Shown here: one piece after another, positions 1,059 through 35,638 of the stretch
Numbering within the stretch: the stretch's first letter is position 1
How the letters are laid out: the number at the start of each line of letters is the position of its first letter
DNA from: Catajapyx aquilonaris
Taxonomy: Eukaryota
Length of the DNA: 35,981 nucleotides
Assembly: GCA_000934665.2 (NCBI GenBank)
Contig: JYFJ02003963.1
Coordinates: forward strand, 1-35,981
Reading direction: 5' to 3'
Made by a program: the position numbers and the translations under genes
Notes under the pieces: model-generated
What the model was told of the DNA's origin: nothing
What the model saw: the letters and a program-made list of their open reading frames with translations, nothing else
Databases searched by the model: none

Positions 1059-4000
1059 CAATGACAGCTGGACTTTTCCCTGCTGTATGCATAACTCCAG
1101 AAAAAGTCTGATGGAATCCTCTGATGGCAATCCCATAATGTCTTCCACTTCGCCTAAAAGTTTTTTGAAGAGTGCTTCTGCAATGGTGAAGTCACCCATT
1201 TGTAACGATATGGTCATGGCGTCACCCAGCATTGGTCCTGTCCATCTGTCAGGAGAAAGTAGGAAATGATGATGAAATTGGTTCAACAAAGCACGTACCA
1301 AATCAGTGCAAATACTGCAGTATTTATCTGACAGGATAGATGCCATTATACACTATACATACGAGGTGCAGTCAAAAATTACTTGCGCGTATTTTTTTTT
1401 AGCCATTGCGCATGACATTTACATATTTGCACTTCAAGGAACATGAAATCCAGCCCATGTGGGATTTTTTGATAAAGGTTTCAAATTTCGCACTGACCGG
1501 ACGCCTGTTTCGCAGCCCTGCAAACAGAGGGCCTTACCGACACTAGCAAAATGGCGGACTTCAGCAAAGCCGATCAGCGTGTTGTGGTGCGATTTCTTTT
1601 TCTGCAAGGGAAAAGTGCTCCTGCGATCCTTAAAGACATGCAGGCCATATGTGGGAACTCCGTCATGCCCTTACGGACGATCCAGTGGTGGGTGAAGGAG
1701 TTCAAGGAAGGGCGTACAAGTGTGACGCATTCCTCAGGGGCTGGCCACCCGTTGACCGCCACAAACGACGCCACTGTCAGCCGTGTGGAGGAACTTGTCA
1801 TGGGCGACAGGCGGATCACTGTGGACGCTATAGCCAATGTCATGAACATTTCGCATGGTTCTGTTCATACCATTATGCACGATCATCTGAAGATGTACAA
1901 AGTCCAAAATGAAAAAGAAATCGCACCACAACATGCTGATCGGCTTTGCTGAAGTCCGCCATTTTGCTAGTGTCGGTAAGGCCCTCTGCTTGCAGGGCTG
2001 CGAAACAGGCGTCCGGTCAGTGCGAAATTTGAAACCTTTATCAAAAAATCCCACATGGGCTGGATTTCATGTTCCTTGAAGTGCAAATATGTAAATGTCA
2101 TGCGCAATGGCTAAAAAAAAATACGCGCAAGTAATTTTTGACTGCACCTCGTATGTATGCAAATTTTCAATGAGGTCAGAAAAAAAAACTGCTGGCTTCC
2201 TAATATGAACTGAGGCTCAAGGGAAGAGCCATTTTCTTATTTCATAGGTATTCAGTCGACTCCCAAATTTACCCATAAATTCTAGAACATATCCACATAC
2301 CACACAACAAAGTGAACCCACCTCAACACTTGGCTTCGGCTGGTTCTCCTGTGGCCATCCTCCTGTGGCTCCATCATGGCTACTATCTCCTTCAGAATGA
2401 CACCAAATTTCCCTCCCTCTTCTTCCTCTTCCCCAGCTTCCTCAGGATGAGCAGCCATGATTTTCAGCAGCAGTCCCAACATTCCCTCCCTGGTTAAGTG
2501 GTCAAAAAGGACGAGGTCAGACCAAAGCCTGGGTAAGTGGCTTATAGCCTCCATCCTCAACATCTTGGCTGCTTCTCCTTCCTCTTCTCCTTTCCTCTGC
2601 ACTTCACCTCCCACCAGCCTCAGAATGGCCTCCATCACACTGGGCTCTGGTGTGTACACATTTGGGACTAGATGATGGTACAGATGCATCACATCCGCAA
2701 GAGATTCCTGGCTTATCTTCACCATAAAGTAATGTCGACTGAAATGAGGGCAAAGTTTAGATCAAGTGTTAAAAATCACAAGAATAGAGTGACTCTTCAA
2801 GAATTTTGCATTACATCATGCCATTTGAAAATTACAAGGGTCAGTCAATGGATTCTCAGCTTAACATAGATGGGGTTGATGCGTAAGGATGTGTTGTCAG
2901 TAAATTGTAGTGGCACTCTCTAGATCTAGAACATCACTCGCAAATTTTCATTGCAATTGCATCATACCAATGGGAGTTATTGACCCCTGAAGACGCGAAA
3001 GTGTGGGGTCTTCTGATGATGCAGAAGATCGAGGCTCATGCAGTGATCAAATTCCTTCACAGGAAGGGAATGAGCCCCAGGACATTTATGAAGAAATGCT
3101 AAACAGAGTGGGTTGCAATGATCCATCCTACAGTGTTGTCAAAAAGTGGGCAAGGGAGTTCAAGGTGGGTAGCACAGCCTGGAAGATGACCCCCACCCAG
3201 GCGGCCCAGCAACAGTTAACACTCAGGAGAATGTGGATCACATTCATAATGTGGTGATTGATGACAGTCAACTCACCATAGACCAGATAGCGGGCGATGG
3301 GCATATCAAATGGCAGTGAGCATTCCATCCGGACACAAACCTTGGGGATGCACACGCTGGGAGCCCGATGGGTACCCAGAAACGTGACACCTGATCAGAA
3401 GGCCCATGTTCAGGCATCATTGGAGGTGTATAAGTGGGATACAGATGCTTTCTTGGGTTGATATGTTACACAAGATGAAACGGGGCTTCACCAACATTGC
3501 CCCAGAAATAAAATAGCAGAGTAAGGAGTCACATCATATCGGATCCCCACCTTATCGAAAGTTCTGTGTCGTCCCATCAGCGGGGAAGGTGATGGCTTCC
3601 ATTTTATGGGACTGTGAAGGGCCTCTGCTGGTGGGCATTCTGGAACATTGTTATGTCACTGTTCCCAAAGATGAAGGAAAGTCTGTGTGGGACTCATTTT
3701 GTCAATGACAGTAAGGTGGTCAGTGTCATGCATGAGTGGTTGGGTGGGGTGGGGAAAGAATTTCATTTGGGGAGAATCAGAGTTTGCAGCACAGATGGGA
3801 GACATGCATTAGTGTTAGGAGGGACTATGTTGAGAAGTCACAATAAATTGGTGACCATGAAAAAAGTCTTTCTGTTCAAGGCCGATAATATTGACTGACC
3901 CTCGTATAACCAAGTGTGCCAAAATTGTGGATTAAACTGTCAAAAACTGCTGGCCCAGTGTGCAGCTGAACCTTCTCTCTCTATCCTTCCCTTCCAGGCA

Positions 4001-7000
4001 ATGATATGCTTCACCTTCACTTCCACCTCCAAAGCTAATCCGCATCATACACTTCCTCCTCCACAATCCTTCATCATCATCATCTGAAGAGCAGAGTGCC
4101 AACTAGTTCAAATACACACTGGGATAGCAGTACCTAGCAACTGATGCAACATGTAAAATTATGTAACTTATTAAGGCCCATTCACACAGGCCGTCGACAG
4201 TTTTGGTTTTGGTTTTGGTTTTGGACCAATCAGAGCGGGCCCTCACGGTAACCATGACGCGTTGTTTACGTGAGGGCCCGTTCTGATTGGTCCGCGGAGT
4301 CGACGAGACCAAAAACCAAAACCGTCGACGGCCTGTGTGAATGGGCCTTGAATGGGCCTTTAGTCAACAAAAAAACACTTCCATTCCATTCCTAAAGTGA
4401 TCACATCACACTGCTCGTCTAACATGCACAAACTAGTCTTACTAGTAGACAGACTCCTTGTATGAATCTCCAATGAACTTGTAGTTGTTTCCCTTGGTGA
4501 GAATGGCATGCAACCTGTCAGCATGTTGAGGGGAATGCAGATGGTTCCTGCAGGCTTCCATGGCCGACATGAAGAAGAAAGTGTCCATAGCATCACGTGG
4601 GTCAATATCCGTGGTAGACTCGAGCTGGCTCATGATGGAATCAAGGATGCCACTTGGTGGGCCTCCTGAAAAACAACACTTTCTTGTCAGTGACTCTTGG
4701 AAGCACAAGCTGCATAAAACGACATTGCACCTGCACATCTGCCCACTCAGCAAACCCTCCCTCACTCACAGTACCAAGGCGTTATGGAAAAGGACAACAC
4801 TTGTACACCATTATAAGGAAAATAAAAGGTACCATGTCAGATGCCCAGGAGGTGCACTAACCCAAATAATTAACTGTATAAAAATCAGAAATATGTCGGA
4901 GGGGGATTTGGCTCAAGTAATGAACCAATCCAATCATATGTGGCTGATATCAATGTCATATTTTGTGATTCTTCACATCACTTCATACCATAAAAAGGTA
5001 GGTCAACCCACCATAATCACTTACAAGTGCGCCAAAAAAAGATGACATTGTCCCAGAATCTCAGACTTATTCCCAGGTGTGGCAGTTATTCAGTAAAAAT
5101 TAATAAAACTGCATTGACACCTTAGCTTCTCCAAACAAACCTCCAAAGTGCAACAGTAAACAGGCAATACTTACTTCCTGGACAGAATATGTTGACAAGG
5201 TAGTAGTAAGATGCAAGGCTGGGACTTATCCCTATCTGTTTAAACTCTGACATGATCTGAAGTGATACTGAACGGGAAATCTGTAGTGAGTTGAATGTTG
5301 TGAGGCAATCAAGGGTTGAGTTAAGACTCCCAAGGTTGGGCATCACTCCATCTGACTGCATGTTCTTCAGGAGCTCCTGCAAGGAATCCAGTCTATTTAA
5401 AGCTACACCCATCTTGTTAATGCTTGTGTACACATTCACATCTTATTGCTTGCAAGGGAAGAATGGACACAGTGACGGCACAATTCCAAACTCAAATACA
5501 GTAGAACCCCGATTATATCCGTCACCCACAGGACAGGGGCATTGTCGGATGACAGAAATGGTAGGATAATCCTAGGAGCAAAGGAAAACACAACAAAAAA
5601 CATTAAAAATCATGAAATCATGTAAAATAGTATGCTTTTCACAGAAATAGGGAAGTATTAATCTTTTACGTACACACACTGCTGTTTAAAATTTAACTAA
5701 GGCAATACAAAAAAAAATGATAACTAGGCCTGCATTACACTATTTGAAGAGTAAACATACATTTACTGCTGGAGCAGGATGGTCGGATAATGAGGTTCTA
5801 CTGTACAAACAGTTTCTCACTAGTAGGTCGTCTGGCATGCATTGAACTTGTTGGCCCAAGACAAGTCAAAAGTGTACGGGTGAGAAATGCGGACCAATTA
5901 CTTTAAAATATCAGAGATCAACATTTTCTTGTACTGTACAATAAAAAAACACTTCAATATTTATAGCACCACAATAATTATAAACATCACTTTACCTGCA
6001 CTAGCTGCCATTTCAGCTCATCTCCTTCCCTGAGAAAATGCACTGCCCTGATGACAGCATTAGTTGTGTCGGCATCAACAATCATCCCCTTCTCCCTGAG
6101 TGAACAATACTCCTCGTAGGACTGGTCTGCCTTTAAGTAGCGGCACATACCCCGGATTAAGGCACATTTTGCCCTCATTGCCTCTGCTCCACCTGCTGCT
6201 GAAATACCATCCAGGAGGGAAGGTATCAAGGGATTAACTTTCCATGTGGTCCTCAGCCTGTCCTTGTTGCGCTCCCTTCCTTCCATCCCTGCTTTAAACC
6301 AGCGTTCTTCCAACCAGTCCTCTTCCAGGGGTTCCTCTCCATTGAAGAAGCAAATAAGTTCTAGTAGAGACTGCTTTGTTTCGACTGACACTTGCCTAGA
6401 AAACGCACCATAGTCATGTAACTGTGTCAGTAGGGTGAGAAATTAACAGCATAAAAAATTACATACTCAATAAGGCCCTTCTTTGCCAGGAGGTCATACA
6501 CTTTCACAGCCTCCTCAACTCTAACATCTTCGATTAGTGATTTTAAGATATCTTCATTGACTTTGCTCTCCTCATCGTAAACTTGCTCGGGGTAGAATGG
6601 CTGAAAGGCATCCAAACTTGAATGAGTGCTCCACAAAGGCATTATAGCAATTTTTATATGTATTACATTTGTACACTACACACCATAATGTCAGGACTGG
6701 CCAGCCTGTGGTTGAAGTACTTTGAATGCTCCTGCCTGACCCACCGAGCTGCTTTTCTGCCTGACTCTTTGGCCAGTGCAAATGTCCTCTTGCCAACATT
6801 GGAAGAGGGGATGAGGAATGGATCATCCTCATACTTGTAGTGGGGTGCAGTTGGGTCACGTTTCACAGTGGCTGACAGTGCCTGACGGGTGAAAAAGGAA
6901 CTAGATGAGTAAATAATAATAAATTAAGCAAAGAAAATCATGCAGAAAACGCCCTGACAAGTTCAAGGCTGCATATTTTTAGAACAGTCCTGCAGATAGC

Positions 7001-10525: not shown

Positions 10526-12436
10526 TTATGATTCACTGCCATAATACATGGGCCTTCTCCTCTTCTTAGGCGCGCTATAACTATTCTGATGGACATAAAA
10601 CAGTTTACGCTCCACAAACATCGACACCAGTCGCCTAAATATCCTGCTCTGAGCATATTTCGCAATGATCTGGACAGCCTTCACAGTCCAAATCTCATGA
10701 ACAATGCAGGCTATCGACAGGGCGGTCCCAACTATCAATAAAACAAACAACTGCTTCATATCACGCAACCGAAGAGCTTTGGGACCCTCGTCATCAATGT
10801 TCATTTTGCCAAGCTTGTACCAATTCCTCTGCTCGATTTCTCTATTCTGTTTGATTGTCATTTCGACATCATGAATCTTGAGTCCGGACTGCAGGTGAAT
10901 AAGGACACCTCGGTTGATCGCTTCGTACGTTACATCGTACATGCGAGTGACCACACCGCCCATCATGATCGGAAGGTCAGGTGTGGCTTCATGAAGATGC
11001 TCGTGATGAAACTGGTTTGTCGGATCTAACTTAAAATACCACACGTTATTTTGAGCAAAACAGGCATACTTGTCCTCCAATGCGCGACTGATACACTCGG
11101 TTAGAAAAGCATCGTACGTGGTGTTATAAATGTCCACGGAGGATGCTACTATTTGCTCTGCTGGAATGAGAGTGAGGTTCACAAACGAGTCAAAATACCA
11201 GTGGTCTTTTGACCCCCACTTGTACCCCAAGCCCAGCAAGTCCTGCAATGAGTCTATGTTCTTCGTGGTATGTGCGTTTGGAAAGTAGCCGACTAATTTT
11301 GAGCTAAACACAGCCGAGATGATCATGCAGAAAAAGAAATGGAGAAAAAATATCCAGCCAATCACTGGATCAAAAGTGGTCATACTCACCCTCAGGCCGA
11401 AGAGAGGTGGTAACATTTTTTCGGACATAATATCAGCCCAGGCTGAACGTCTACTTTGCCCTTCTTCTCTTTTTGACACAAATGTCAAAATGGTGGTCAC
11501 CACAAAAATGCAAACGATCAGCCCGAACCAAACGATTTTCGGAAAAGGCTGGATCACCAAATCGAATGTCTTTGGCGGAAACTTTCTGGTAATCATCACC
11601 ATTCTGTTAAACACGTTAGGCTGGGTGTACAGCAAAGACATGTTCGGCCTGATAGAAAAATCTTGACAAAAGCAATATTTATTCTTGCAACCTTTGACCT
11701 TGCGCGCCTTGTAATTTAAATATTGCTGCAAGAATCCATTTATGGATCGTCCTATCCAACATACGTCGACCACCCTCCCTCTAAAACTATTGGCAGTCTC
11801 TGGAAAATAAACTTCGGACGAATTCACGTCACGACGTTCCCAAACAGAGTAGTTTCCTCCATTGCAAAAGTAACAGGACGTCAAAAGTCGATAACTCAAT
11901 TCATCTTCTTTTCGCCTCAACTGATCAATCCCTATCCTATATTTCAACATGCTCACTTCTACATTCATGCAACTCTGCAGCTTATCTTTTTTCACATGAT
12001 GTATGATATAATCTCTAGCCATTTTCCAATGTCTGAACCTCTCCTTGTAGTTGTTCAGAAGAGTATGCCATACTCGTACTCGGGAATGGGTCAGAACTAG
12101 GAAGCAATGGCCAGAATTTTGTAACACCAAGGAATTTTGGTCCACTGATTTGCTGGAGTTCACCAAGGATGAGATGACTATTGGAGATGAGACCATTTTG
12201 GGCAGTTGGTCCATCCCGTTGGACAGAACTGGGTCGTCGTGGAGGATGGCCAATGAGCAGGAGGCCAGCTGTGGAGATTCGGTGAGCATTTGGGACACTG
12301 TTTGTGACAGCAGCATTTCTTCTGTCTCTTGCAGGTAGGTGGTGGACAGTTTTGGGCTGGCTGTCTCTACGTAGATGGCAAGAAAGCATAGTGTAAAGAG
12401 GAACGTCAACAGCACCGCCATCCTGTTCAACGGCAT
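10526..12436 (-). CDS. Divergent ionotropic receptor (IR, iGluR-derived chemoreceptor), intronless
   Basis: ~636-aa single ORF (first ATG 12436, alternative 12421) with a signal peptide. M1 QPFPKIVWFGLIV, M3 MIISAVFSSKLVGYF followed by IDSLQDL, S2 end LIHLQSGL, M4 PKALRLRDMKQLFVLLIVGTALSIACIVHEI. Confidence 0.82.
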   Translation of the reverse strand: MPLNRMAVLLTFLFTLCFLAIYVETASPKLSTTYLQETEEMLLSQTVSQMLTESPQLASCSLAILHDDPVLSNGMDQLPKMVSSPIVISSLVNSSKSVDQNSLVLQNSGHCFLVLTHSRVRVWHTLLNNYKERFRHWKMARDYIIHHVKKDKLQSCMNVEVSMLKYRIGIDQLRRKEDELSYRLLTSCYFCNGGNYSVWERRDVNSSEVYFPETANSFRGRVVDVCWIGRSINGFLQQYLNYKARKVKGCKNKYCFCQDFSIRPNMSLLYTQPNVFNRMVMITRKFPPKTFDLVIQPFPKIVWFGLIVCIFVVTTILTFVSKREEGQSRRSAWADIMSEKMLPPLFGLRVSMTTFDPVIGWIFFLHFFFCMIISAVFSSKLVGYFPNAHTTKNIDSLQDLLGLGYKWGSKDHWYFDSFVNLTLIPAEQIVASSVDIYNTTYDAFLTECISRALEDKYACFAQNNVWYFKLDPTNQFHHEHLHEATPDLPIMMGGVVTRMYDVTYEAINRGVLIHLQSGLKIHDVEMTIKQNREIEQRNWYKLGKMNIDDEGPKALRLRDMKQLFVLLIVGTALSIACIVHEIWTVKAVQIIAKYAQSRIFRRLVSMFVERKLFYVHQNSYSAPKKRRRPMYYGSES

Positions 12437-12983
12437 CACATTTGGGGTACACACGTTGGCATCAAAAAGTGTCTAGTGTGAAAGTCTTTTGTCGAGCACA
12501 TTGCACTCACTGCAGTTCGCTCTGTATGCTTTCACTTGCACTGGTAACTCACAACAGTTGTTAGCATTGAACTATTACACTTGACTGTCACTTGTATCTG
12601 AGGTGAAGTAGCGGCAGCTGATAATAATAGTCCTCTGGTCAGAAAGGTGCTTGTAATCATGGCGTGCGAATACTGTGCAGGCGACAGAGAGACTAACACT
12701 CAAACTAAGTCCTCTTGGCATACTAATATTGATTGCTCACCCCTCCCGGCCTTCCCATTTATTATTCATTTTGCCTTGAAATTGTCTTGACAGAAGGAAG
12801 CAATTACTACGCAAGTTATTGACTAAATTGTGGATCAAGGAAAATGTTTCCCAAATAAAGGAGTTTTCGGATTATGATGAAAACTATATTAATATGCAAC
12901 CATGCTTCTGCTGGAAATGATTTGGGGATTTTGTCTTTCTGACCCAAATATTGCGAGGCAGTATACAGTCCTGTAGTAAATTA

Positions 12984-14950: not shown

Positions 14951-21816
<6,866 letters not shown>

Positions 21817-23103: not shown

Positions 23104-23196
23104 CAGTTTTAATCACCATGTACACTGTATGATGATTATTGTGATACCCAAGGTGATAACCCATAACTTTCTTTTACAGGAGAGTCAACCATTACC

Positions 23197-24219
23197 ATGA
23201 AACCAGTGACTGTAGGGCATCTGACCAAAATTTCATCCTCCAGTTTGCAATGGAAAATTGATGCATTTCCTTCTTACCTGACAATAAGATCACCTGAAAA
23301 ACTGGAATCACCTTCATTCAAAATACACCCTGACGTCCTGGGGCGGTGGCAGTTACGCATCTGTCCATGGGGGGATGAATTCCCTCAAGATTTTGGCTAC
23401 ATTTCAACCTTCCTTTACTACTCTCCTCCACCTGAAAGCAAAGACAAAATCTACATGTCATGGAAGTTAGCCATTAAAGACATGGACGGAGATCACTACT
23501 ACCCAGTAGTACGATCAGAGTCACATGACGAATTTTATACCAGCATGGGTTGGGGATTTGGTCGATTTTTGAGCCATGACGAATTCAGAAATAATGCAGA
23601 GATGCTGGTGCCAGGAAACACACTGACTTTGGTCTTAAAGTGGGACATTGACTTCCAGCAATCGTTGATAGTCACCACACATGCCACGTTCAAGCTGTGC
23701 GAAGACTTTCAGAGCCTTCTGGAGACCGGCGATTACTCTGACTTCACCATTGTCAGCGCAGATGGAATTGAGACTCCTGTCCACAGAGTGATCCTGTCAG
23801 CCAGAAGCCCAGTGTTTGCCGCCATGCTGAAGTACAACACATTGGAGAAGCAAACGGGTGTGGTCAACATCCAGGACGTGGGCCACAAGGCCATCCAATC
23901 AATCTTGTTTTATATGTACACTGGAAAGAAGCCCGAGAAATTGCAGACCATGGCGGCTGAAATCCTGAAGGCGGCTGATAAATATGACCTAGACATTCTC
24001 AAGATTATGTGTGAAGCCCACATGAGCATTAACCTGGAGGTGCCCAATATTACTTCAACGCTGAAATTAGCCCAGACACATAACTGCAGCTTGCTCAAGA
24101 GAGAGTGCATTCTTTTTGCTGCCAAAAATTTGGAGGCGTGGAAGAGTTCGTCTCATTGGCAGGAGGAGGACTTACCTGAGGATGTCATGAGAGAAATTGA
24201 GGAAACCAAATTGACATGA
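23197..24219 (+). CDS. MATH-BTB/POZ protein (SPOP/roadkill/TDPOZ-like Cullin-3 adaptor), single coding exon
   Basis: MATH: WKIDAF..LESPSF..WQLRICPWG..YISTFL..GWGFGRFL..LTL. BTB: SDFTIV..VHRVILSARSPVF..MYTGK..AADKYDL..LKIMCE. Splice acceptor ttttcttttacag at 23179 just upstream; AATAAA near 24295. Confidence 0.9.
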   Translation: MKPVTVGHLTKISSSSLQWKIDAFPSYLTIRSPEKLESPSFKIHPDVLGRWQLRICPWGDEFPQDFGYISTFLYYSPPPESKDKIYMSWKLAIKDMDGDHYYPVVRSESHDEFYTSMGWGFGRFLSHDEFRNNAEMLVPGNTLTLVLKWDIDFQQSLIVTTHATFKLCEDFQSLLETGDYSDFTIVSADGIETPVHRVILSARSPVFAAMLKYNTLEKQTGVVNIQDVGHKAIQSILFYMYTGKKPEKLQTMAAEILKAADKYDLDILKIMCEAHMSINLEVPNITSTLKLAQTHNCSLLKRECILFAAKNLEAWKSSSHWQEEDLPEDVMREIEETKLT

Positions 24220-27309: not shown

Positions 27310-30300
27310 TCACTCTCTCACTTGACTCTCCTCTTCTTTCCGGTTAGGCTTTATGCTTCCATCCACTTCACGTCCACTACCTCCACCATAACCGCCTGAT
27401 TCTTCAGGTTGCTTTGCAGCCCGAAGCCTTGTAACCCTGTAGCAATTATAAGCCCGGTAGGGTGGACGTGACACATCTCGCCTTCTGATCATTCGGGTCC
27501 GGTTCGGCACCACATCTTCCCCCTTGCCCATCATCCAGTCCCAGTTCTCTGCATCCTGGTCGCTGCTTACATTGGTCTCGGCCCATGCCTGGTGCCAGTC
27601 CTGAAAACGGGCATCGATCCTGCTGGTTACCCTGCGATGGCTTTCACGTCCCCGACGGAGTGCCTGTGGCTTGTACAAGTAGCTCTTGCTCTTCGTTGAT
27701 ATCGCCATATTGTATGTGCTAGGATGAAAAATGTAATGCATGTCCTCAGAGATTTCCATTCCTTCAGACGCCTTGGACGCATTTTCCGACTCCTCAGCTT
27801 TTGTTGTAGCATGGCAAGAGCGCAGGTTGCGTGGCAAAACTACTGGTTTGTGCATCATCACTTCCTTCAAGTCGTCTGGCAAAGTGTCATCGTTACTTAT
27901 CAAGTGTTCAACGTAAGATGACCATTTTCCAACCTCACCAATCAGTTCAGTTTCCTCAACTTCTGGGTCCAGTAGCTCCACCGTCATGCGACAGTCATCT
28001 TTGTAGACAGCAATGCGAAAGCAATTTTCTTCTCCCAGCATTTGCTCAACACAACGCTGGTAAGATGCCTCACTACGACCCCGTCCTTGTAAGTATGCAG
28101 TCATGCATCTCAAACATGTCTCATCATTGACAATGTGCTGAAGTTGGCGGACAGTATTGCCAACAACTTTGCCTAAGGTGAAGGCAATGTATGCATTGAT
28201 GCCAAACATCTCACGTAATGTGTCTTCATAAACCTTAGCTTCCATATTTCCATCAAGTACATTTTTTACCATGTCAAGAAGAGCAGGATAGTAGTCTTCA
28301 ATAAGTATCTCACACTTTGGCTTCAATTGCTGAGCTACAGCAGTTGATTCACGGCGGTTCTTACGTTCACGAGCCTCCTCTGATGCAATCCGATTTGCAT
28401 GATCATACATGCAGGTCAGCCGCTCACATAGGATGTGGTGGAGACGAAACAGAAGGTACCAGATGTTGTTACCAACCAACAATGTGTAGCTCTCAGATGT
28501 TGGTGGAGTGTCCCAAATTGGTGCATGCCAGAATTGCCTCTGCCTGTCAATCTTGTCCTTGCATTCATTCTCCTTGTCATCAATGTCATCGCGCTCATCT
28601 TCACTCAGCTCCTGGCGTGGATGAAAGAACATATCCGGCACAAATTCACGCAGCAGGCGCTTGATTTTCAGTTTGTCTTCCTTATTTATTCCTGTCTGCT
28701 GCTTCACGTGATGAATGAGAAGGTTGGCAGCATCATCAAGCACTCTCTTGTCTCGATAACACAACACAAGGTGAGGACCTTGTGGTAATTCCCCACCTTC
28801 CTCAGCCTGCTCATGCCTTTCATCATAAAGTGTCTCTACTTCATTTAAGAGGCTCTTGCTTCGTAGGGCCTTCATGTCCTTCTGCTTGAAGTTGATCCCT
28901 TTATGATCAAGTGACTTCAGGTAGTACTTCTCCGTCTGCTCACGCCACACCTTGTTGAACTTCTTTTGAGCTTCACGCCACTCCTCCTCCTTGCCCTTTA
29001 GCCGCCTTAAGACAATCGGAACTGCGACAGATGGAGTCTTCTTTAGTCCGTCAATAATATCATGCGCTTTATCACCATAGACACGACGTACGGCACTCTG
29101 GTTCACAGTTGGTGAGGTGCCTCCAAGACAATCATCAAGTTTGAATTGAGCAGCCTCCTCTGCAGACATACGAGACAACTTCTTCTGCACTGCCTCCAGG
29201 GAGCGAACAGCTGATGCATTCGTGTCAATGACAATGTCTAGCTCAAATCTTTCATCTTCACATCGGTACATGATCTCTTCATACACCGTCTTACGAGAAC
29301 TCACACAAGTGAAATCTTCAGACCACGAGAGGGATGAAACCATCCTGTCATTGAGTACCTCTTTGCAAAGGGTGGTGCGGCCCGAACACATGGGAGGAAC
29401 GAATTTTTCTGGGAAAGAAAAATAGCTGGAACCAAGTTGCTTCTTTATGGAGTAGTCAATCTCCAGGGGAGGATGACGAGCAGCTAGTTCATTTTTAGCA
29501 ACTGCACTAGGAATTGGATCAAATGTCACGATGCTGTCACTGTGGTAACCCAGGAGGTCTTTAAAGTATCTAAATAGCTCTGGAAATTTTCCCAGAAAAG
29601 GAGTCACCATTTGTACCAAATCCTTGCGTGATGCCTTCTCTTCATTGTAGATCTTCAAACATCTCAGAAAGTTATTGTACACCTCCTCTGATTTGACTGC
29701 ACGACGCACCTTGTTAAAAAAGGCATAATCAGTGAATGAACAATATTTTCCAGCTTCAGCCATTGACAGATCTTGTACTGAGGTCATCTTCGGTTTTTTA
29801 ATAGCAGGTTCCTGTGGTAATATAGCTGCTGCTGCTGCTGGGCTCTCAGTGGGTCCACACTTGGGCACAGCAGTAGCTGCAATGGTAACAATGGGGGGGG
29901 GGGGGGATTTGCAACAGTAACCACTGGCTTTCTCACAACTGAACCATAATCATTGTTGACACACTTACCGGCAAATGCCTGATGTCTTGTGGCATCTGAC
30001 AAGAACTGGCCAAACTCCTGCAGCAAATCTTCCTGGCGTTGAAACAGCTTGGCAACCTGTGAGTACACTTTTGCTTCCTTCAGTTGTTTTCCTGGAGCTG
30101 CAATTGCAGATGGTGCACCTTCTTTCACGCTGCACTGGTACGTGCGGAGAATCTTAAGAAATTGCTTGTACTTGTCTGGCTGCCTTTGAAACCGGTTCTT
30201 GACTTTGATCATATAGTTGGTGGCATGGGTGACTCCAATTGGTTTAACTTGTGGAATTACAGCTGGCACTGGCAGTGCAACAGGTGACACAACAGGAACA

Positions 30301-31121
30301 TTGTTGTGTACAGAGTGAGCAGTGGACTTTACTGTTACACCAACGGGTGCTGGTGGTGCGGTAGCAGCAACTGGAGCCAAGGCAGTCAGCCGGGGGTGGT
30401 GAGTCAGTGTGGCTCCTGTTGGAGTGTGCACTACTGTGGTCTGACAAGGCATGCTGACTGACTCCTGTTCACCAGGATGCACTTCAATTTCGTAGCCATG
30501 TGGCAGGAACATATTGAAGCCAGCAATCAACTCAGGATGCCCTCTGAAGAGGCTTGCGATAATAGCAATAACCCTCGGTGTATCAATGGACTTTGACCTG
30601 AATTCTTTCATGATGATTAAGAAGTCATTGAACACATGCGGTTGCTGTCGAAACGTGTATTTGATATGGTCCAAATATGACACCGCATATTCATGGTTCA
30701 CGTCTTGGTACTGGTGCGGCTGGCTGGTACTGGTTCCGTTACTGCCATTACCAGTGTTGGCTGGAATAGTAGGGGTTGCAGATGCAGCAGCTGCAGCAGC
30801 ATGAGCAGTAGCAACTGCTGCATTAGCAGCTCTGTACATGGCATGTTGCTGGTGCAAAGCATGCTGTTGGTTGGCAAGGGTTGCCATATTGTGCCATGTT
30901 GTTTCAACACTTCCGTCCCCGGCTAGTGCTGTTGCTGATGATGATGCCACACTACCAGTTAGTGCAATGCTGTCCAGCCTGTTCCCCAAGTCATTAAGAG
31001 ACTGTTGGTATGTTGGACTTAGAGGAGGCTGTTGGGTGACACTGGCAACTGTTGATGCTGGAGCATCGGTGACTGACAATGGAGTAGGTGTCTTGGGGGC
31101 TTCACGTCTACCAGGCTTCAT
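27310..31121 (-). CDS. Sin3A: Paired amphipathic helix protein Sin3-like corepressor, divergent near-intronless copy (probable retrogene). Either two exons 31121-29969 + 29876-27310 (1239 aa) or frameshifted at the C14 run
   Basis: PAH1 SYLDHIKYTF..FLIIMKEFRSKSIDTP..HPELIAGFNMFLP, PAH2 NYMIKVKNRFQRQPDKYKQFLKILRTYQ..DLLQEFGQFL, PAH3 EVYNNFLRCL, HID CSGRTTLCKEVLND..RCEDERFELD..YYLKSLDH, PAH4 and the C-terminal domain. Splice acceptor ttatttacag at 31191 in the 5' UTR. Confidence 0.88.
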
Positions 31122-31671
31122 GGCTGCTGCTCCTTTCTTGATTTACCTCACAGCCAGACTGTCTTCAGAATATACAGATGAATTCTGCACCTGTAAATAA
31201 CAGACCAATGTGAAGGAAAAGAATGATAATCTAGACACTTTTCATATAGGGTGAGTCATAATTCCAGGTCAATATCTCACTAGCGTCATTGCTGGCCCAA
31301 AATAAGTCTAAGATGTAGATGAACCATGTGGCCGCAAACCTGCAATAATGCACACTACTGCATACTGATTAATCCACAACTATCCACAAAAATGCGATAT
31401 CACGTCATCCGCAAATTACACAGAACAATAAAATCCTTAATTCTCCTCTGCCATCTCCTTGTTTCAAAATACAGGTAGTCCCCGGTCTATGAATGGGGCT
31501 ACGTCCCTGGAAATGTCCATAAGTTGGATTTGTACATAACGCAGATCCCCGAGGAACAGCTCATACAAGGTGCCACCCAAAAGTTCGCGAACTGACTTTT
31601 GTCTGAAAAATGAGCTTACCGTTCACCTTATTTTCCTTCATCACCTTCGAAGTAGTCTCCTTTTGAATATA

Positions 31672-33725
31672 AGAGGTAGGCGGCAAAAGTTTCCTTCCTG
31701 GCTATGTTCCAGGGGTGATAGAAATAAAACAACTATAGTGTCAGGTAGTCCCAACTATGAGTGGAGGAATGTACAAGTTTCCCCCCGCAATGTCAGTCAG
31801 TCTCTTAGAAAAGTCAACTTTAGTCAGACGAGTTGCAACATGGTGAAAATCGAGTATCGAGAGTGATCAAGTTCCTCACCAAGGCCTTACTACCATCTCT
31901 ATTAAATAGGGCTTGGATGGTGTGCATGGTGAAGCTTCCTCTTCATATTCCACAACGAAGGAATGGGCTAAGAAGGTGTGTTTGGGTTGAGAGAGTATCG
32001 AAGGCAAGCTAAGCGACTTACGGCCCATGGAGGTGCTGACAGCAGAGACCGTCTCGCTTGTGGAGGAATAGGTGCTGCAAGCAGGCCCTTGAAGGTGAAG
32101 GAACTCTTAGCAAGGTTGGAGCTTTCAGACACCACCATTCCTCTCATTCTTCATGAACACCTTCACATGAAAAAGGTCAGCACAAGATGGGTGCCCCAAC
32201 TTCTGTCCGCAATTCAAAAGCAAAAATGCGTAACATGTTGCGGAGCGTTTTCGAACCTTCGCCGTGGCAAACAGAAAGAAGTACTGGAGTTCATCGTGAC
32301 AGGAGATGAAACTATGGTCCTGTGCTATGATCCTCTATCAAAAAGAGAATTAACGGAATAGCGTAGGGCAGGCGGAAAGCGGCCAAGTGACCCGGTCAAC
32401 CAAGAAGACCATGGTGACGGTTCTTTAGAATTCCAAAGGAATCTTACTAATAGACTTCAAGGATTAAAACACGATTGTCTACGGGGAGTCTTACTCTGGC
32501 CTGCTGTACAGGTTTTGTGATGCCATGAAGGAGAGGAGATGGGGGAAGCTGAGTTGGGGTGTTCTCCAACTTCAGGATAATTCACCAGGTTACATGATAA
32601 TGTTTCCAAGGCTGCTGTGAGGAACTGTGGCTTCGAGGAGCTTGATCACCCACCCTACTGGCCCCTAGTGACTATTACCTGTTATCCAAACTCAAAAAAG
32701 AACTTCAAGGTACGGCTAAAAAGTGATAAAGAGGTGTAAGAGGAAGTATATGATCATTTTGAAGAGAAAACTTTGGACTAATTTTCCCGAGGTATTGAAA
32801 TGATAATTTTGAGATATGAGAAGTGCAGTGATGTACAAGGAGACTATATTGAAAAATGACACTGTCGTTTTATTTCGGATAAACTATTTGTTCATCCGCA
32901 CCTTAACAACACGGTCGGTGTTAGGCCTCCGACAGTTGGCAACGCTGCGTCGCAAACAATCGGGTGCCTATTGATACTGCTGCATGGTTACATGGAACTG
33001 TGCTTTATTCTTCTTTTCGGCCTTTCGGGGATTCAATTCGGGATTTTGAGGTGATTAAGTGGATGGAATAGCCCTTTGTCTTGGTGTTGCTGTATGGCTT
33101 TTTGTTACCGCAACAGTACTGTACATTGTTGTGGCCCTGCCAGGCACGGTACGTCGCCCGTGTGTGATATTTTTAGTTTTTGCGGAGCGATAGCGGAGCT
33201 GGGCGCTTATTGTGGGTTTCTGTATCCGCAACATTTACTGCCCGTCTTGTGGCGCCGCAGGCCAACGAACGTTATTGTGGCTTTGTCAAGCGCGAAGTAC
33301 ACCTTCACAGAGTCATGACGTCAAGTTCCACCCGCCACCACCCGGCTCTCCCCTCCAATCATGCCCACAACTTACTCTGCAGGCATACTACTGCACACGC
33401 TCAGAAAACACGGCTGGTGTGACATCATATCGTTCTTTGGGTTAAAGGACTGCAGCAACCATCATGGGTTTCATATTTCCCACCTCCTTCATTAATACTG
33501 TGGTCCTAACACTCGTCTGAACGGTTCGCGTGGCAGGGGTAAGAAGACGCCCTTTGTTATGCTCTCCCGGCAACCGGTTGTTTGCGACGCGTAGCCAACA
33601 TGTTTGGAGCACACGACGCCCTGCCAATTCCACCACGTCGCTAGGTGCGGATAAACGATAGACTTTCCTTTATTTCCATCACCCCTGGAACATAGCCAGG
33701 ACGGAAACTTTTGGCGCCTACCCCA
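31672..33725. mobile_element. Mariner-like long-TIR non-autonomous element inserted in the outer mariner
   Basis: TA|agaggtaggcggcaaaagtttccttcctggctatgttccaggggtgatagaaataaa and its reverse complement ending at 33725|TA. Removing it restores WEEHWDWYLYSKGDYFEGDEGK* of the host transposase. Confidence 0.85.
31840..32859 (+). pseudogene. Mariner transposase pseudogene (near full length, multiple stops and frameshifts)
   Basis: MVKIEYR..IKFLTK, LHMKKVSTRWVPQLL, IVTGDETMV..YDP, KTMVTV, LAPSDYYL, GDYIEK*. Confidence 0.88.
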
Positions 33726-35638
33726 TAGATACCAATCCCAGTGCTCTTCCCACAATTGGAATGCTTTGTCGAAGTCATTTTTTGTTAGGACTCTCAACAC
33801 CACCTGCGACCGTGGACCTGGTTTACTGAGTCAAATCATCTTCCTTTCAACTTGATTTTCATATTCGGGAATAGGAAGAAGTGGCAGGGAGCTAAATCTG
33901 GCAAAAAAAAGTGGGTAAGGGACAATCTTCATGTTTTGGGACGCCAAAAACTGCTGCGCAGCAAATGCGGGGTGGGCGCGCAAGTTATCATATTGTTGTT
34001 CTCGCGCCACTTTGCAAGGCGTTTCCTTGGAATGTCCTTCCTCAGCCACCTTTTCCGCCAGATTTAGCTCCCTGCGACTTCTTCCTAATCCAAAAATGAA
34101 AATTAAGCTGAAATAAAGAAGATCTGAGAATAATTTTATCCATTTTCTGTGGGGTTGTGCTCTTCAGAGGACGTCCAGAACGATCGTCATCTTCAATTGA
34201 AATGGGGCCATCTTTGAACCACGATTATATCACTTCTATGTCCCTAAAACATTGTCATCGAATGCATCTTATAGCATCTTGTGAGTTTGCAGCACTTTTG
34301 CCAAGTTTGAAACAAAATTGACGCTGTTCTTTTAGGCCATCCATTTTCACTCCCAGATAGAATCGCAGAACGCACCAAACACAACACTACAAAACTGCCC
34401 ACAGAAACTGATCCATTCAACCTCAGACGTTACCACTTCGCAGAGTAGTTCAGAAAGGTCACGTGCAGCACTACGTAGAGTGGTAGCAACAAACTATGTG
34501 CTGTTCAAAAGTACTAGCGTCAGTTCGCGAACTTTTGGGTTGCACCTCGTATATACAGCATAAAGATGCTGCTCCAACAAACCGCTTGCATCATGAGTGT
34601 TTGTTTACATGCGCAAAAGAATGTAGTTTCCCAATTATTTATTTATTATACCGTAATTGTATTTATGTTGAACTTGGTGTCAGTCAGGGTAAGCAGTTCT
34701 GAATGATTGAAAGCAGAGGGATAACTACCCTTCTGGGGAGCCTTGGAAGCCCGTTCGTAAGTACGGATAGCCGTAAGTCTGGTCGCTTGTTAAACCGGGA
34801 GCTACCTGTATACCAGAAAAATTTTTTTTGACCTTTTTGCCAAGTGTAAAGGAGGACCTTTTAAACTTGCTGTACAACATCTTGGCTGGGAGTTGTCTCA
34901 GTGCCAACTGCATGACTCAAGTACAGTGTGACCCAATAATGGCTGGAAAACAAGGTCAGCTCTGTGGCCCAGCACGCGGAGGGGAGTTCATTAAGACTCC
35001 CAGATACATTGAGCAGAGCACATAATTATGTACCTCAACCTTGAGACACGAAACTTGTGACTAGAAAGCTTAGGTAAGTGCGAGATGGGCAAATCACCCC
35101 GGATCCAGTAAACAGTGCCTTCTTATGCGTCAAGTAATCAAAAGCAGCATATTTTCCCACCAAGGGGCCAAGAAATGGTCTGTTATAGCCGAGGTGATGT
35201 GAAAATGAGTCTGCAAAATAAAAATGCACAGGGCCTGATGGAAGTATGCCAGGACCAGGTTTTTGAGTCGACATTAACTGTGAGACTCTTAAAAGTTAGG
35301 CCATTATATCCAGAGTCAACAGTATTTCCGAGCTTCAGAAATTTAGTGATCCTTGGCACTTGAGGTCAGTAGCTGGACCAATTTTGCCAAGTCTACACAC
35401 TTCTGCATCCAGGCATGGAGGCAGCCGTTAGATGGGATGGTCAACAAATAAATTGTTATTGTTCAATATGTATATTGGATTGTTACATATTCCGCTCAAA
35501 TGTTAAGCATCGTGTTAAGTACATACAGCATGTTCCTATTGAAATGATAATGGTTTGCAAAATTTTGGGGCACTAAGCAGCTCATTTCAAGCAGTTGTAT
35601 GGTTACTAAAAGTAAGCATAAGATTCTATAATACAATA

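Follow-up and report, generated by a model that had tools for sequence, protein, structure and literature searches.

In Catajapyx aquilonaris, an intron-less Sin3A gene has a diverged duplicate in which 28 codons of the variable linker between PAH2 and PAH3 may have turned into a spliceosomal intron. We place this reading a little short of an even chance, and nearly the same weight goes to a copy that is dying and only mimics splice signals. The gene lies in the window, i.e., the whole stretch of DNA that was analyzed (35,981 nt), which is the entire contig G000:C2116. Its parts are as follows.

29969..31121, minus strand, 5' coding part of the Sin3A duplicate, the predicted exon upstream of the candidate intron, with the ATG at 31121
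30504-30638 and 30000-30176, minus strand, PAH1 and PAH2, respectively, inside that 5' coding part
29877..29968, minus strand, candidate phase-1 GT-AG intron of 92 nt, whose homolog in the conserved Sin3A is a coding linker of 84 nt (28 codons)
29963..29971, minus strand, donor CCG/GTAAGT (score 9.7; 1 of 21 inferred introns scores higher)
29893..29906, minus strand, C14 homopolymer (G14 on the plus strand), the cause of the frameshift; two other runs from the same sample give C11
29877..29892, minus strand, acceptor region, ending in TTGCAG (score 7.6; 10 of 21 inferred introns score higher)
29784..29876, minus strand, end of the unspliced 445-aa product, out of frame up to its stop
27310..29876, minus strand, 3' coding part with PAH3, the HDAC-interaction domain (HID; Sin3_corepress), and Sin3a_C, open to its stop

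The domains of the Sin3 co-repressor family (three PAH repeats, HID, and Sin3a_C) are all present and in the same order, split over two frames. Pfam (family models PF02671, PF08295, and PF16879) finds two PAH stretches in the 445-aa ORF and PAH3, Sin3_corepress, and Sin3a_C in the second ORF. Both flanking ORFs are without stops, and the frameshift at the C run is the sole lesion in about 1270 codons. The window copy, one of the 11 Sin3-derived loci that own-genome searches recovered, differs from the rest of the Sin3A/Sin3 family in being a lineage-specific paralog that evolves fast. In protein searches (lengths 510-1626 and 483-1539), the best match to the window region had 60% identity, and no close protein of Catajapyx aquilonaris was among the matches listed.

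That the C14 run puts the two Sin3 ORFs out of frame had been proposed in an earlier note on this DNA, and this was confirmed. As a check for assembly error, contigs covering the run were inspected; they give C14 (X1) or C11 (X3 and X4) and never C12 or C15. The X1 contig is identical to the window, and X1 may be the source of the assembly. X3 and X4, from the same sample as X1, each have one contig across the stretch, with three bases fewer at 29893 and no further mismatch in 1.1 kb. X5, from another sample, covers 29400-29613 of the window copy without differences and ends short of the run. Overall, the frameshift looks real rather than an assembly artifact, and the simplest reading of C14 and C11 is that they are two alleles. 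Both keep the same truncating frame (C11, 444 aa; C14, 445 aa); a run of 9, 12, 15, or 18 would keep the frame open, and the two lengths, which differ by exactly 3, are each one base short of an in-frame length. The run grew from CCA CCA (Pro-Pro codons). Across 114,734 bases (the window plus 10 fetched loci), there are 19 G/C runs of at least 8 nt, with a mode of 13 and lengths reaching 26, and 10 of the 19 long G/C runs in the fetched DNA adjoin an N. The length distribution of these runs is flat, and A/T runs drop off beyond 8-9; the spread of G/C homopolymer lengths suggests an expansion bias in this genome.

The window copy had also been taken for a retrocopy of a multi-exon parent, which the comparison with the rest of the family argues against. 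The conserved Sin3A (G000:C5546 plus C4790; loci L008 and L014), whose nearest outside proteins are mostly arthropod Sin3A, has a dN of about 0.005 on its branch, differs from 30 outside homologs at 0 of 58 conserved PAH1 columns and 0 of 61 conserved PAH2 columns, and is without an intron over the 929 + 294 codons seen. About 92 of its codons fall in a contig gap, and the same codons are uninterrupted in the window copy and in C2962. No multi-exon Sin3 parent was found in the own-genome searches. C944, considered as a candidate parent, proved to be a different PAH-like gene and not Sin3. The window copy and the conserved gene are also homologous over about 200 nt 5' of the ATG, a stretch that reaches beyond a predicted 5'-UTR acceptor, and then again farther upstream.

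31191..31323, minus strand, upstream block shared with the conserved copy, ending at the predicted 5'-UTR acceptor TTTACAG (31191, score 9.6)
35323..35596, minus strand, two further upstream blocks collinear with the conserved copy (84% over 96 nt and 73% over 64 nt)

The two further blocks, 35323-35418 and 35533-35596, have E values of 3e-24 and 4e-6, respectively. A repeat check of the shared block gave only a single weak extra match, which is weak evidence because the search also failed to recover the known match to C5546. At the point where 3' homology fades, there was no poly(A) to be seen. Between the collinear blocks, at 31324-35322, the window holds about 3.5 kb more than the conserved copy, probably as insertions; three ORF remnants in 31972-34163 resemble a transposase, but none of them (0/3) had a Pfam match.

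Given the shared collinear upstream blocks, the missing poly(A), and the intron-less conserved gene, the window copy probably arose by DNA-level duplication, from a gene that already lacked introns, rather than as a fresh retrocopy. This genome is rich in introns, and the CDS of the sole conserved Sin3A found in it has none as far as it was seen. Sin3A genes of other animals are multi-exon, and a neighbor of the window copy has 16 inferred introns, from which we infer that the founder of the family was anciently retroposed; the conserved Sin3A is possibly an ancient retrogene that replaced its parent.

Seven of the nine other derived copies (C2341, C3217, C6154, C4231, C7119, C2415, and C2962) contain stops, frameshifts, or large deletions; C2465 looks whole, and C2467 is a PAH1+PAH2 ORF. 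Four of their features are as follows.

L024:2945-4183, stand-alone PAH1+PAH2 ORF of C2467, 412 codons
L025:2720-3433, PAH1-only remnant of C7119, joined to a C-terminal fragment
L009:6445-6466, G22 run in the Sin3 CDS of C2962, adjoining an N; the conserved gene has G4 here
L012:6928-7200, intron-like insert of C2465 (GTAAGT..ACAG, 273 nt), missing in the conserved and window copies

No intron was seen around the G22 run of C2962, a copy that has lost about 400 nt of C-terminal coding sequence after that run. In C4231 (L010 near 5540-5560), the linker spot homologous to the C run reads T9 and then CTCTAG, which is acceptor-like. The C2465 insert lies between two almost identical 12-nt copies of exon sequence, and it may represent a second, insertion-type intron gain in the Sin3 family.

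The candidate intron of the window copy is bounded on the minus strand by donor GCCG/GTAAGT at 29968 and acceptor TTGCAG/CT at 29877, 92 nt apart and in phase 1, as the earlier note described. Its removal does join both ORFs in frame (1239 aa, junction QAFAATAVPK), and the unspliced form is indeed, by Pfam, a 445-aa protein with PAH1 and PAH2 and without the HID. The enclosed NDYGSVVRKP aligns with NDHGGTVKKP of vertebrate SIN3A, the resemblance that the earlier note pointed out, and with the linker motif NDH..KKP in the conserved copy. The segment is an 84-nt (3n) coding linker in C5546 and C2962, where it carries the NDH..KKP motif seen across animals. Because the ancestral length is 3n, removal of the segment restores the frame regardless of changes inside it. 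Frame restoration was rejected as evidence for an intron: in addition to the 3n ancestral length, 112 GT..AG pairs of 40-300 nt within 29701-30200 restore the frame, 10 of which use the candidate donor.

Comparison among the copies indicates how the splice signals may have been assembled. The AG at the end of the segment is already present in the conserved copy (as TAG). At the segment start, C5546 and C2962 have GGA and the outgroup copies C2465, C2415, and C4231 have GGT; by parsimony, the donor GT is probably ancestral. In favor of a newly born intron, the conserved copy has no GT donor there; against it, the AG is ancestral and the GT occurs in three outgroup copies. The further claim that the intron rescues a frameshift is not supported, since the ancestral segment was 3n and the AG and the outgroup GT preexisted; an order in which the intron came first and the C run expanded later is at least as likely. 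New in the window copy are T at +6 of the donor and, in the acceptor, the loss of an upstream AG, C>T at -6, and T>C at -3, all three of which improve the score. Within the scored windows, GT itself aside, four of six differences raise the score (by 0.7 to 2.4) and two lower it by 0.2. About 26 residues of the PAH2-PAH3 linker are deleted in C2465 and C2415, which indicates that this region is dispensable in derived copies.

Splice signals were scored with a simple weight model built on 21 introns inferred from the reading frame in two neighboring genes (16 in an ATPase-like gene and 5 in the mS39/PTCD3 gene), and the candidate was ranked leave-one-out. The neighbors, and a second strong pair, are as follows.

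14951-21816, minus strand, P-type ATPase gene (1007 aa, 16 inferred introns of 64-863 nt), which we take to be Na+/K+-ATPase alpha-like
1059-6881, minus strand, mS39/PTCD3-like PPR gene (PF22330)
1497-1952, plus strand, Mos1-type transposase HTH remnant within an intron of the mS39/PTCD3-like gene
10526-12472, minus strand, intron-less ionotropic-receptor-like ORF (Lig_chan)
23167-24219, plus strand, intron-less SPOP-like MATH-BTB-BACK ORF
29709-29580, minus strand, strong GT..AG pair of 130 nt, not 3n, in the PAH3 coding region (score 17.6; 18.9 in the conserved copy)

The joined exons of the ATPase-like gene give 1007 codons and one terminal stop, with a Pfam match to Hydrolase (E 3e-5); one GC-AG intron lies at 20377-20314.

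Donor and acceptor of the candidate match the strength of the reference introns, and their sum of 17.2 is exceeded by 5 of the 21. In an exon background of 23,445 nt (eight CDSs), none of 1,334 other GTs scores as high as the candidate donor, and 2 of 13,801 GT..AG pairs of 60-200 nt reach the candidate sum, neither of them 3n. Exon positions spanned by an equally strong pair number 0 of 23,445 for 3n pairs and 260 of 23,445 (1.1%) for any phase. The 3n background count stays at 0 in 24 of 30 bootstrap models, and the remaining 6 give matching 3n pairs. Five Sin3 CDSs, 17,460 nt in all, contain GGTAAGT just once, 62 nt upstream of their one frameshift. When an ancestor-like segment was evolved at gene-wide rates, a donor of at least 8 together with an acceptor of at least 6 arose in 0.66% of 20,000 runs (16-intron model), and none of the 20,000 runs reached the scores of the candidate.

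The two background pairs that reach the candidate sum are one homologous site, at 29709-29580 here and in the conserved gene, and this 130-nt pair is probably never used as an intron. Its use would frameshift the conserved gene, and high scores alone are therefore no proof of splicing. A frame-restoring pair of such strength is expected across the break by chance in about 0.4-1% of cases, and about 6 of 21 real introns reach the candidate score, which gives a likelihood ratio of roughly 25-75. Combined with an assumed prior of 1-3% that a new intron encloses the only frameshift of a redundant duplicate, this yields a posterior of about 20-70%.

The C run had been suggested to serve as the pyrimidine tract, and it is more likely a burden. 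Introns of the window have T-rich tracts (T 0.45, C 0.19), whereas the candidate tract has 6 T and 11 C at positions -25 to -4. The accessible text of PMC11182011 reports that C-rich, U-poor tracts give poor splicing and cites a substrate in which 13 Cs replacing 8 Us abolished splicing. The acceptor score of the candidate derives from the 16 bases downstream of the run, and all other acceptors for its donor score lower (best, 4.4 at 29812). The candidate is without a YTRAY branch motif, which was found in 10 of the 21 reference introns, and its GC content is 0.48 (0.38 without the run) versus 0.28-0.44 in 16 introns.

Purifying selection has acted on the window copy through most of its history, and the copy either is still alive or died very recently. 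Its branch has a dS of 0.22-0.27 and a dN/dS of 0.44-0.48, and synonymous changes are in excess in each third of the gene (P of 0.002 to 7e-7). In simulated neutral decay (400 runs each), the ORF remained stop-free with a probability of 0.055 at 0.02 and 0.015 at 0.03 substitutions per site, and the time dead is at most about 0.02-0.03 of about 0.25 substitutions per site. As the ORF so rarely stays stop-free under neutral decay, the signal-improving changes probably arose under selection. Inside the segment, 15 of 84 sites differ and dN/dS is 0.46 (over 28 codons), like the rest of the gene; were the segment neutral throughout, 15 or fewer differences would have a probability of 0.035. With a substitution rate and dN/dS as elsewhere in the gene, the intron, if it is one, is young. 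Relative to the 30 outside homologs, conserved columns are changed at 21 of 138 positions in the HID, 16 of 58 in PAH1, and 18 of 61 in PAH2, and PAH1 and PAH2, including the first helix of the latter, are the most eroded domains.

If the segment has become an intron, four point changes would have strengthened a donor and an acceptor on the ancestral GT and AG, and the spliceosome would have come to remove a 3n linker segment at little cost to the protein, since deletions have removed part of this linker in outgroup copies. The intron most likely came first, at a 3n length that did no harm, and the run expanded later: with most transcripts spliced, the reading frame within the segment would cease to matter and the C run could slip freely out of frame. 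Splicing would yield a 1239-aa co-repressor with PAH1 to PAH3, the HID, and the C-terminal domain. It is probably incomplete because of the C-rich tract, and unspliced transcripts, ending at codon 445, would be by-products and not a selected decoy. For the claim of intronized exon sequence, then, the former coding origin stands, given the homology to the coding linker, as does the strength of the signals relative to the exon background; the reading as a whole is one that we hold tentatively.

A serious alternative, to which we assign a somewhat lower probability, is that the gene is a recently disabled or dying copy in which the Pro-Pro codons became a hypermutable C run, the frame was lost, and the splice-like signals are coincidental, resting on an ancestral cryptic GT and AG. 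Such an end would fit the family-wide decay (the 7 of 9 disrupted copies), the abundance of long G/C runs (19 in 114,734 bases), the G22 run in the CDS of C2962 and the T9 run of C4231 at the homologous linker spot, and the changes at conserved columns in PAH1 (16/58) and PAH2 (18/61). The donor is only one substitution from an ancestor-like CCG/GTAAGA that already scores 8.8, and the conserved gene contains a strong and probably unused pair. However, chance would place a pair this strong, restoring the frame over the break, in only the 0.4-1% of cases estimated above, and any time since the death of the copy is limited to about 0.02-0.03 substitutions per site; nevertheless, the run has gained at least 5-8 bases in each of the two lengths seen.

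It is unlikely that the gene is intact, with true alleles of C12 and C15 (1269 and 1270 aa) from which the short-read consensus drops one base and with the GT-AG pair serving at most as an optional in-frame exitron. C11 and C14 are each one short of an in-frame length and are 3 apart, no second lesion occurs in about 1270 codons, and 10 of the 19 long G/C runs adjoin an N. According to the available portions of two studies, the one-unit deletion is the commonest mononucleotide sequencing error (PMC4417121), and Illumina error rates rise at long G/C runs (PMC11140927). Even so, the error would have to be in the majority in all three runs covering the site, in single contigs without another mismatch in 1.1 kb. 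In the same portion of PMC4417121, an (A)13(A)14 genotype is called from 13 PCR+ reads, which implies that read lengths usually peak at the true one. This reading would also leave the strengthened splice signals unexplained.

Still less likely is a regulated switch between the full co-repressor and a 445-aa PAH1+PAH2 decoy, through intron retention or polymerase slippage on the C run, as the earlier note had envisaged. The unspliced product has the domain layout of Sin3B-293 as described in the accessible part of PMC3786298, C11 and C14 share the truncating frame (444/445 aa), and a stand-alone PAH1+PAH2 ORF exists at C2467. But PAH1 and PAH2 are the most eroded domains, so that binding to normal partners is doubtful, and the better-kept HID argues against a selected decoy of this kind. 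The tail of the short product is out-of-frame linker sequence whose premature stop may trigger decay, and no unusual RNA structure was found around the site (fold, z = 0.21). The boldest proposal is the least probable of all: an intron caught at birth, made from a coding linker by four point mutations, in which a hypermutable C run locks the intron in and, through the length of the run (C11 or C14), tunes co-repressor versus decoy, in a lineage whose only conserved Sin3A is intron-less, probably anciently retroposed, and regaining introns in its duplicates.

Intronization itself is already known and rare. It is described, in the available sections, in PMC2586383 (Catania and Lynch 2008), PMC2740785 (Cryptococcus), PMC12124190 (human CYP21A2), PMC3565874, and PMC9612004, and Irimia et al. 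2008 is cited as an intronization study among the first three. The same sections give 5 apparent cases among 28,256 introns (Roy, in PMC2740785) and 3 of 342 intron gains in a human survey (PMC12124190). Intronization of 3n segments in duplicates has precedent there too, with 8 of 10 intronized retrogene introns keeping the parental frame (Kang et al. 2012; PMC3565874). The window copy resembles known cases in that a dispensable linker of 3n former coding sequence retains recognizable coding homology and in that its GT-AG was made or strengthened by point changes. It differs in that the candidate intron is predicted from DNA and in that a homopolymer of varying length in one sample breaks the frame; with the frame so broken, the intron would be obligatory at a very young age. 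Like the intronized human retrogenes in the accessible text of PMC3565874, it would be a gain in an otherwise intron-less duplicate through cryptic sites plus substitutions. Unlike them, it has a parent that is intron-less in the CDS and shares collinear upstream DNA, and it is thus probably a DNA-level duplicate; moreover, those cases rest on transcripts, and the candidate intron here is predicted from DNA. The mouse Sin3B 293 short isoform likewise has PAH1 and PAH2 without the HDAC-binding domain, but, as far as the available part of PMC3786298 goes, it is an expressed isoform of a conserved gene, whereas the short form here is hypothetical, with an out-of-frame end and eroded PAH domains. 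We found no literature on an intron-less, duplicated arthropod Sin3A.

Should splicing be absent, the window copy would be no more than a common kind of young pseudogene and would caution that exons can contain strong splice-like pairs. Few clear cases of intronization exist, and age has made the steps of most of them unreadable. Here, the ancestral coding state, each signal-improving substitution, and the frame-breaking run are all readable from paralogs in one genome, so that the case, if real, would add youth and readable steps and would provide a step-by-step example of the 3n-first model. Together with the apparent second intron gain in C2465, it would make the Sin3 family of Catajapyx aquilonaris a small test of how an intron-less gene gains introns.
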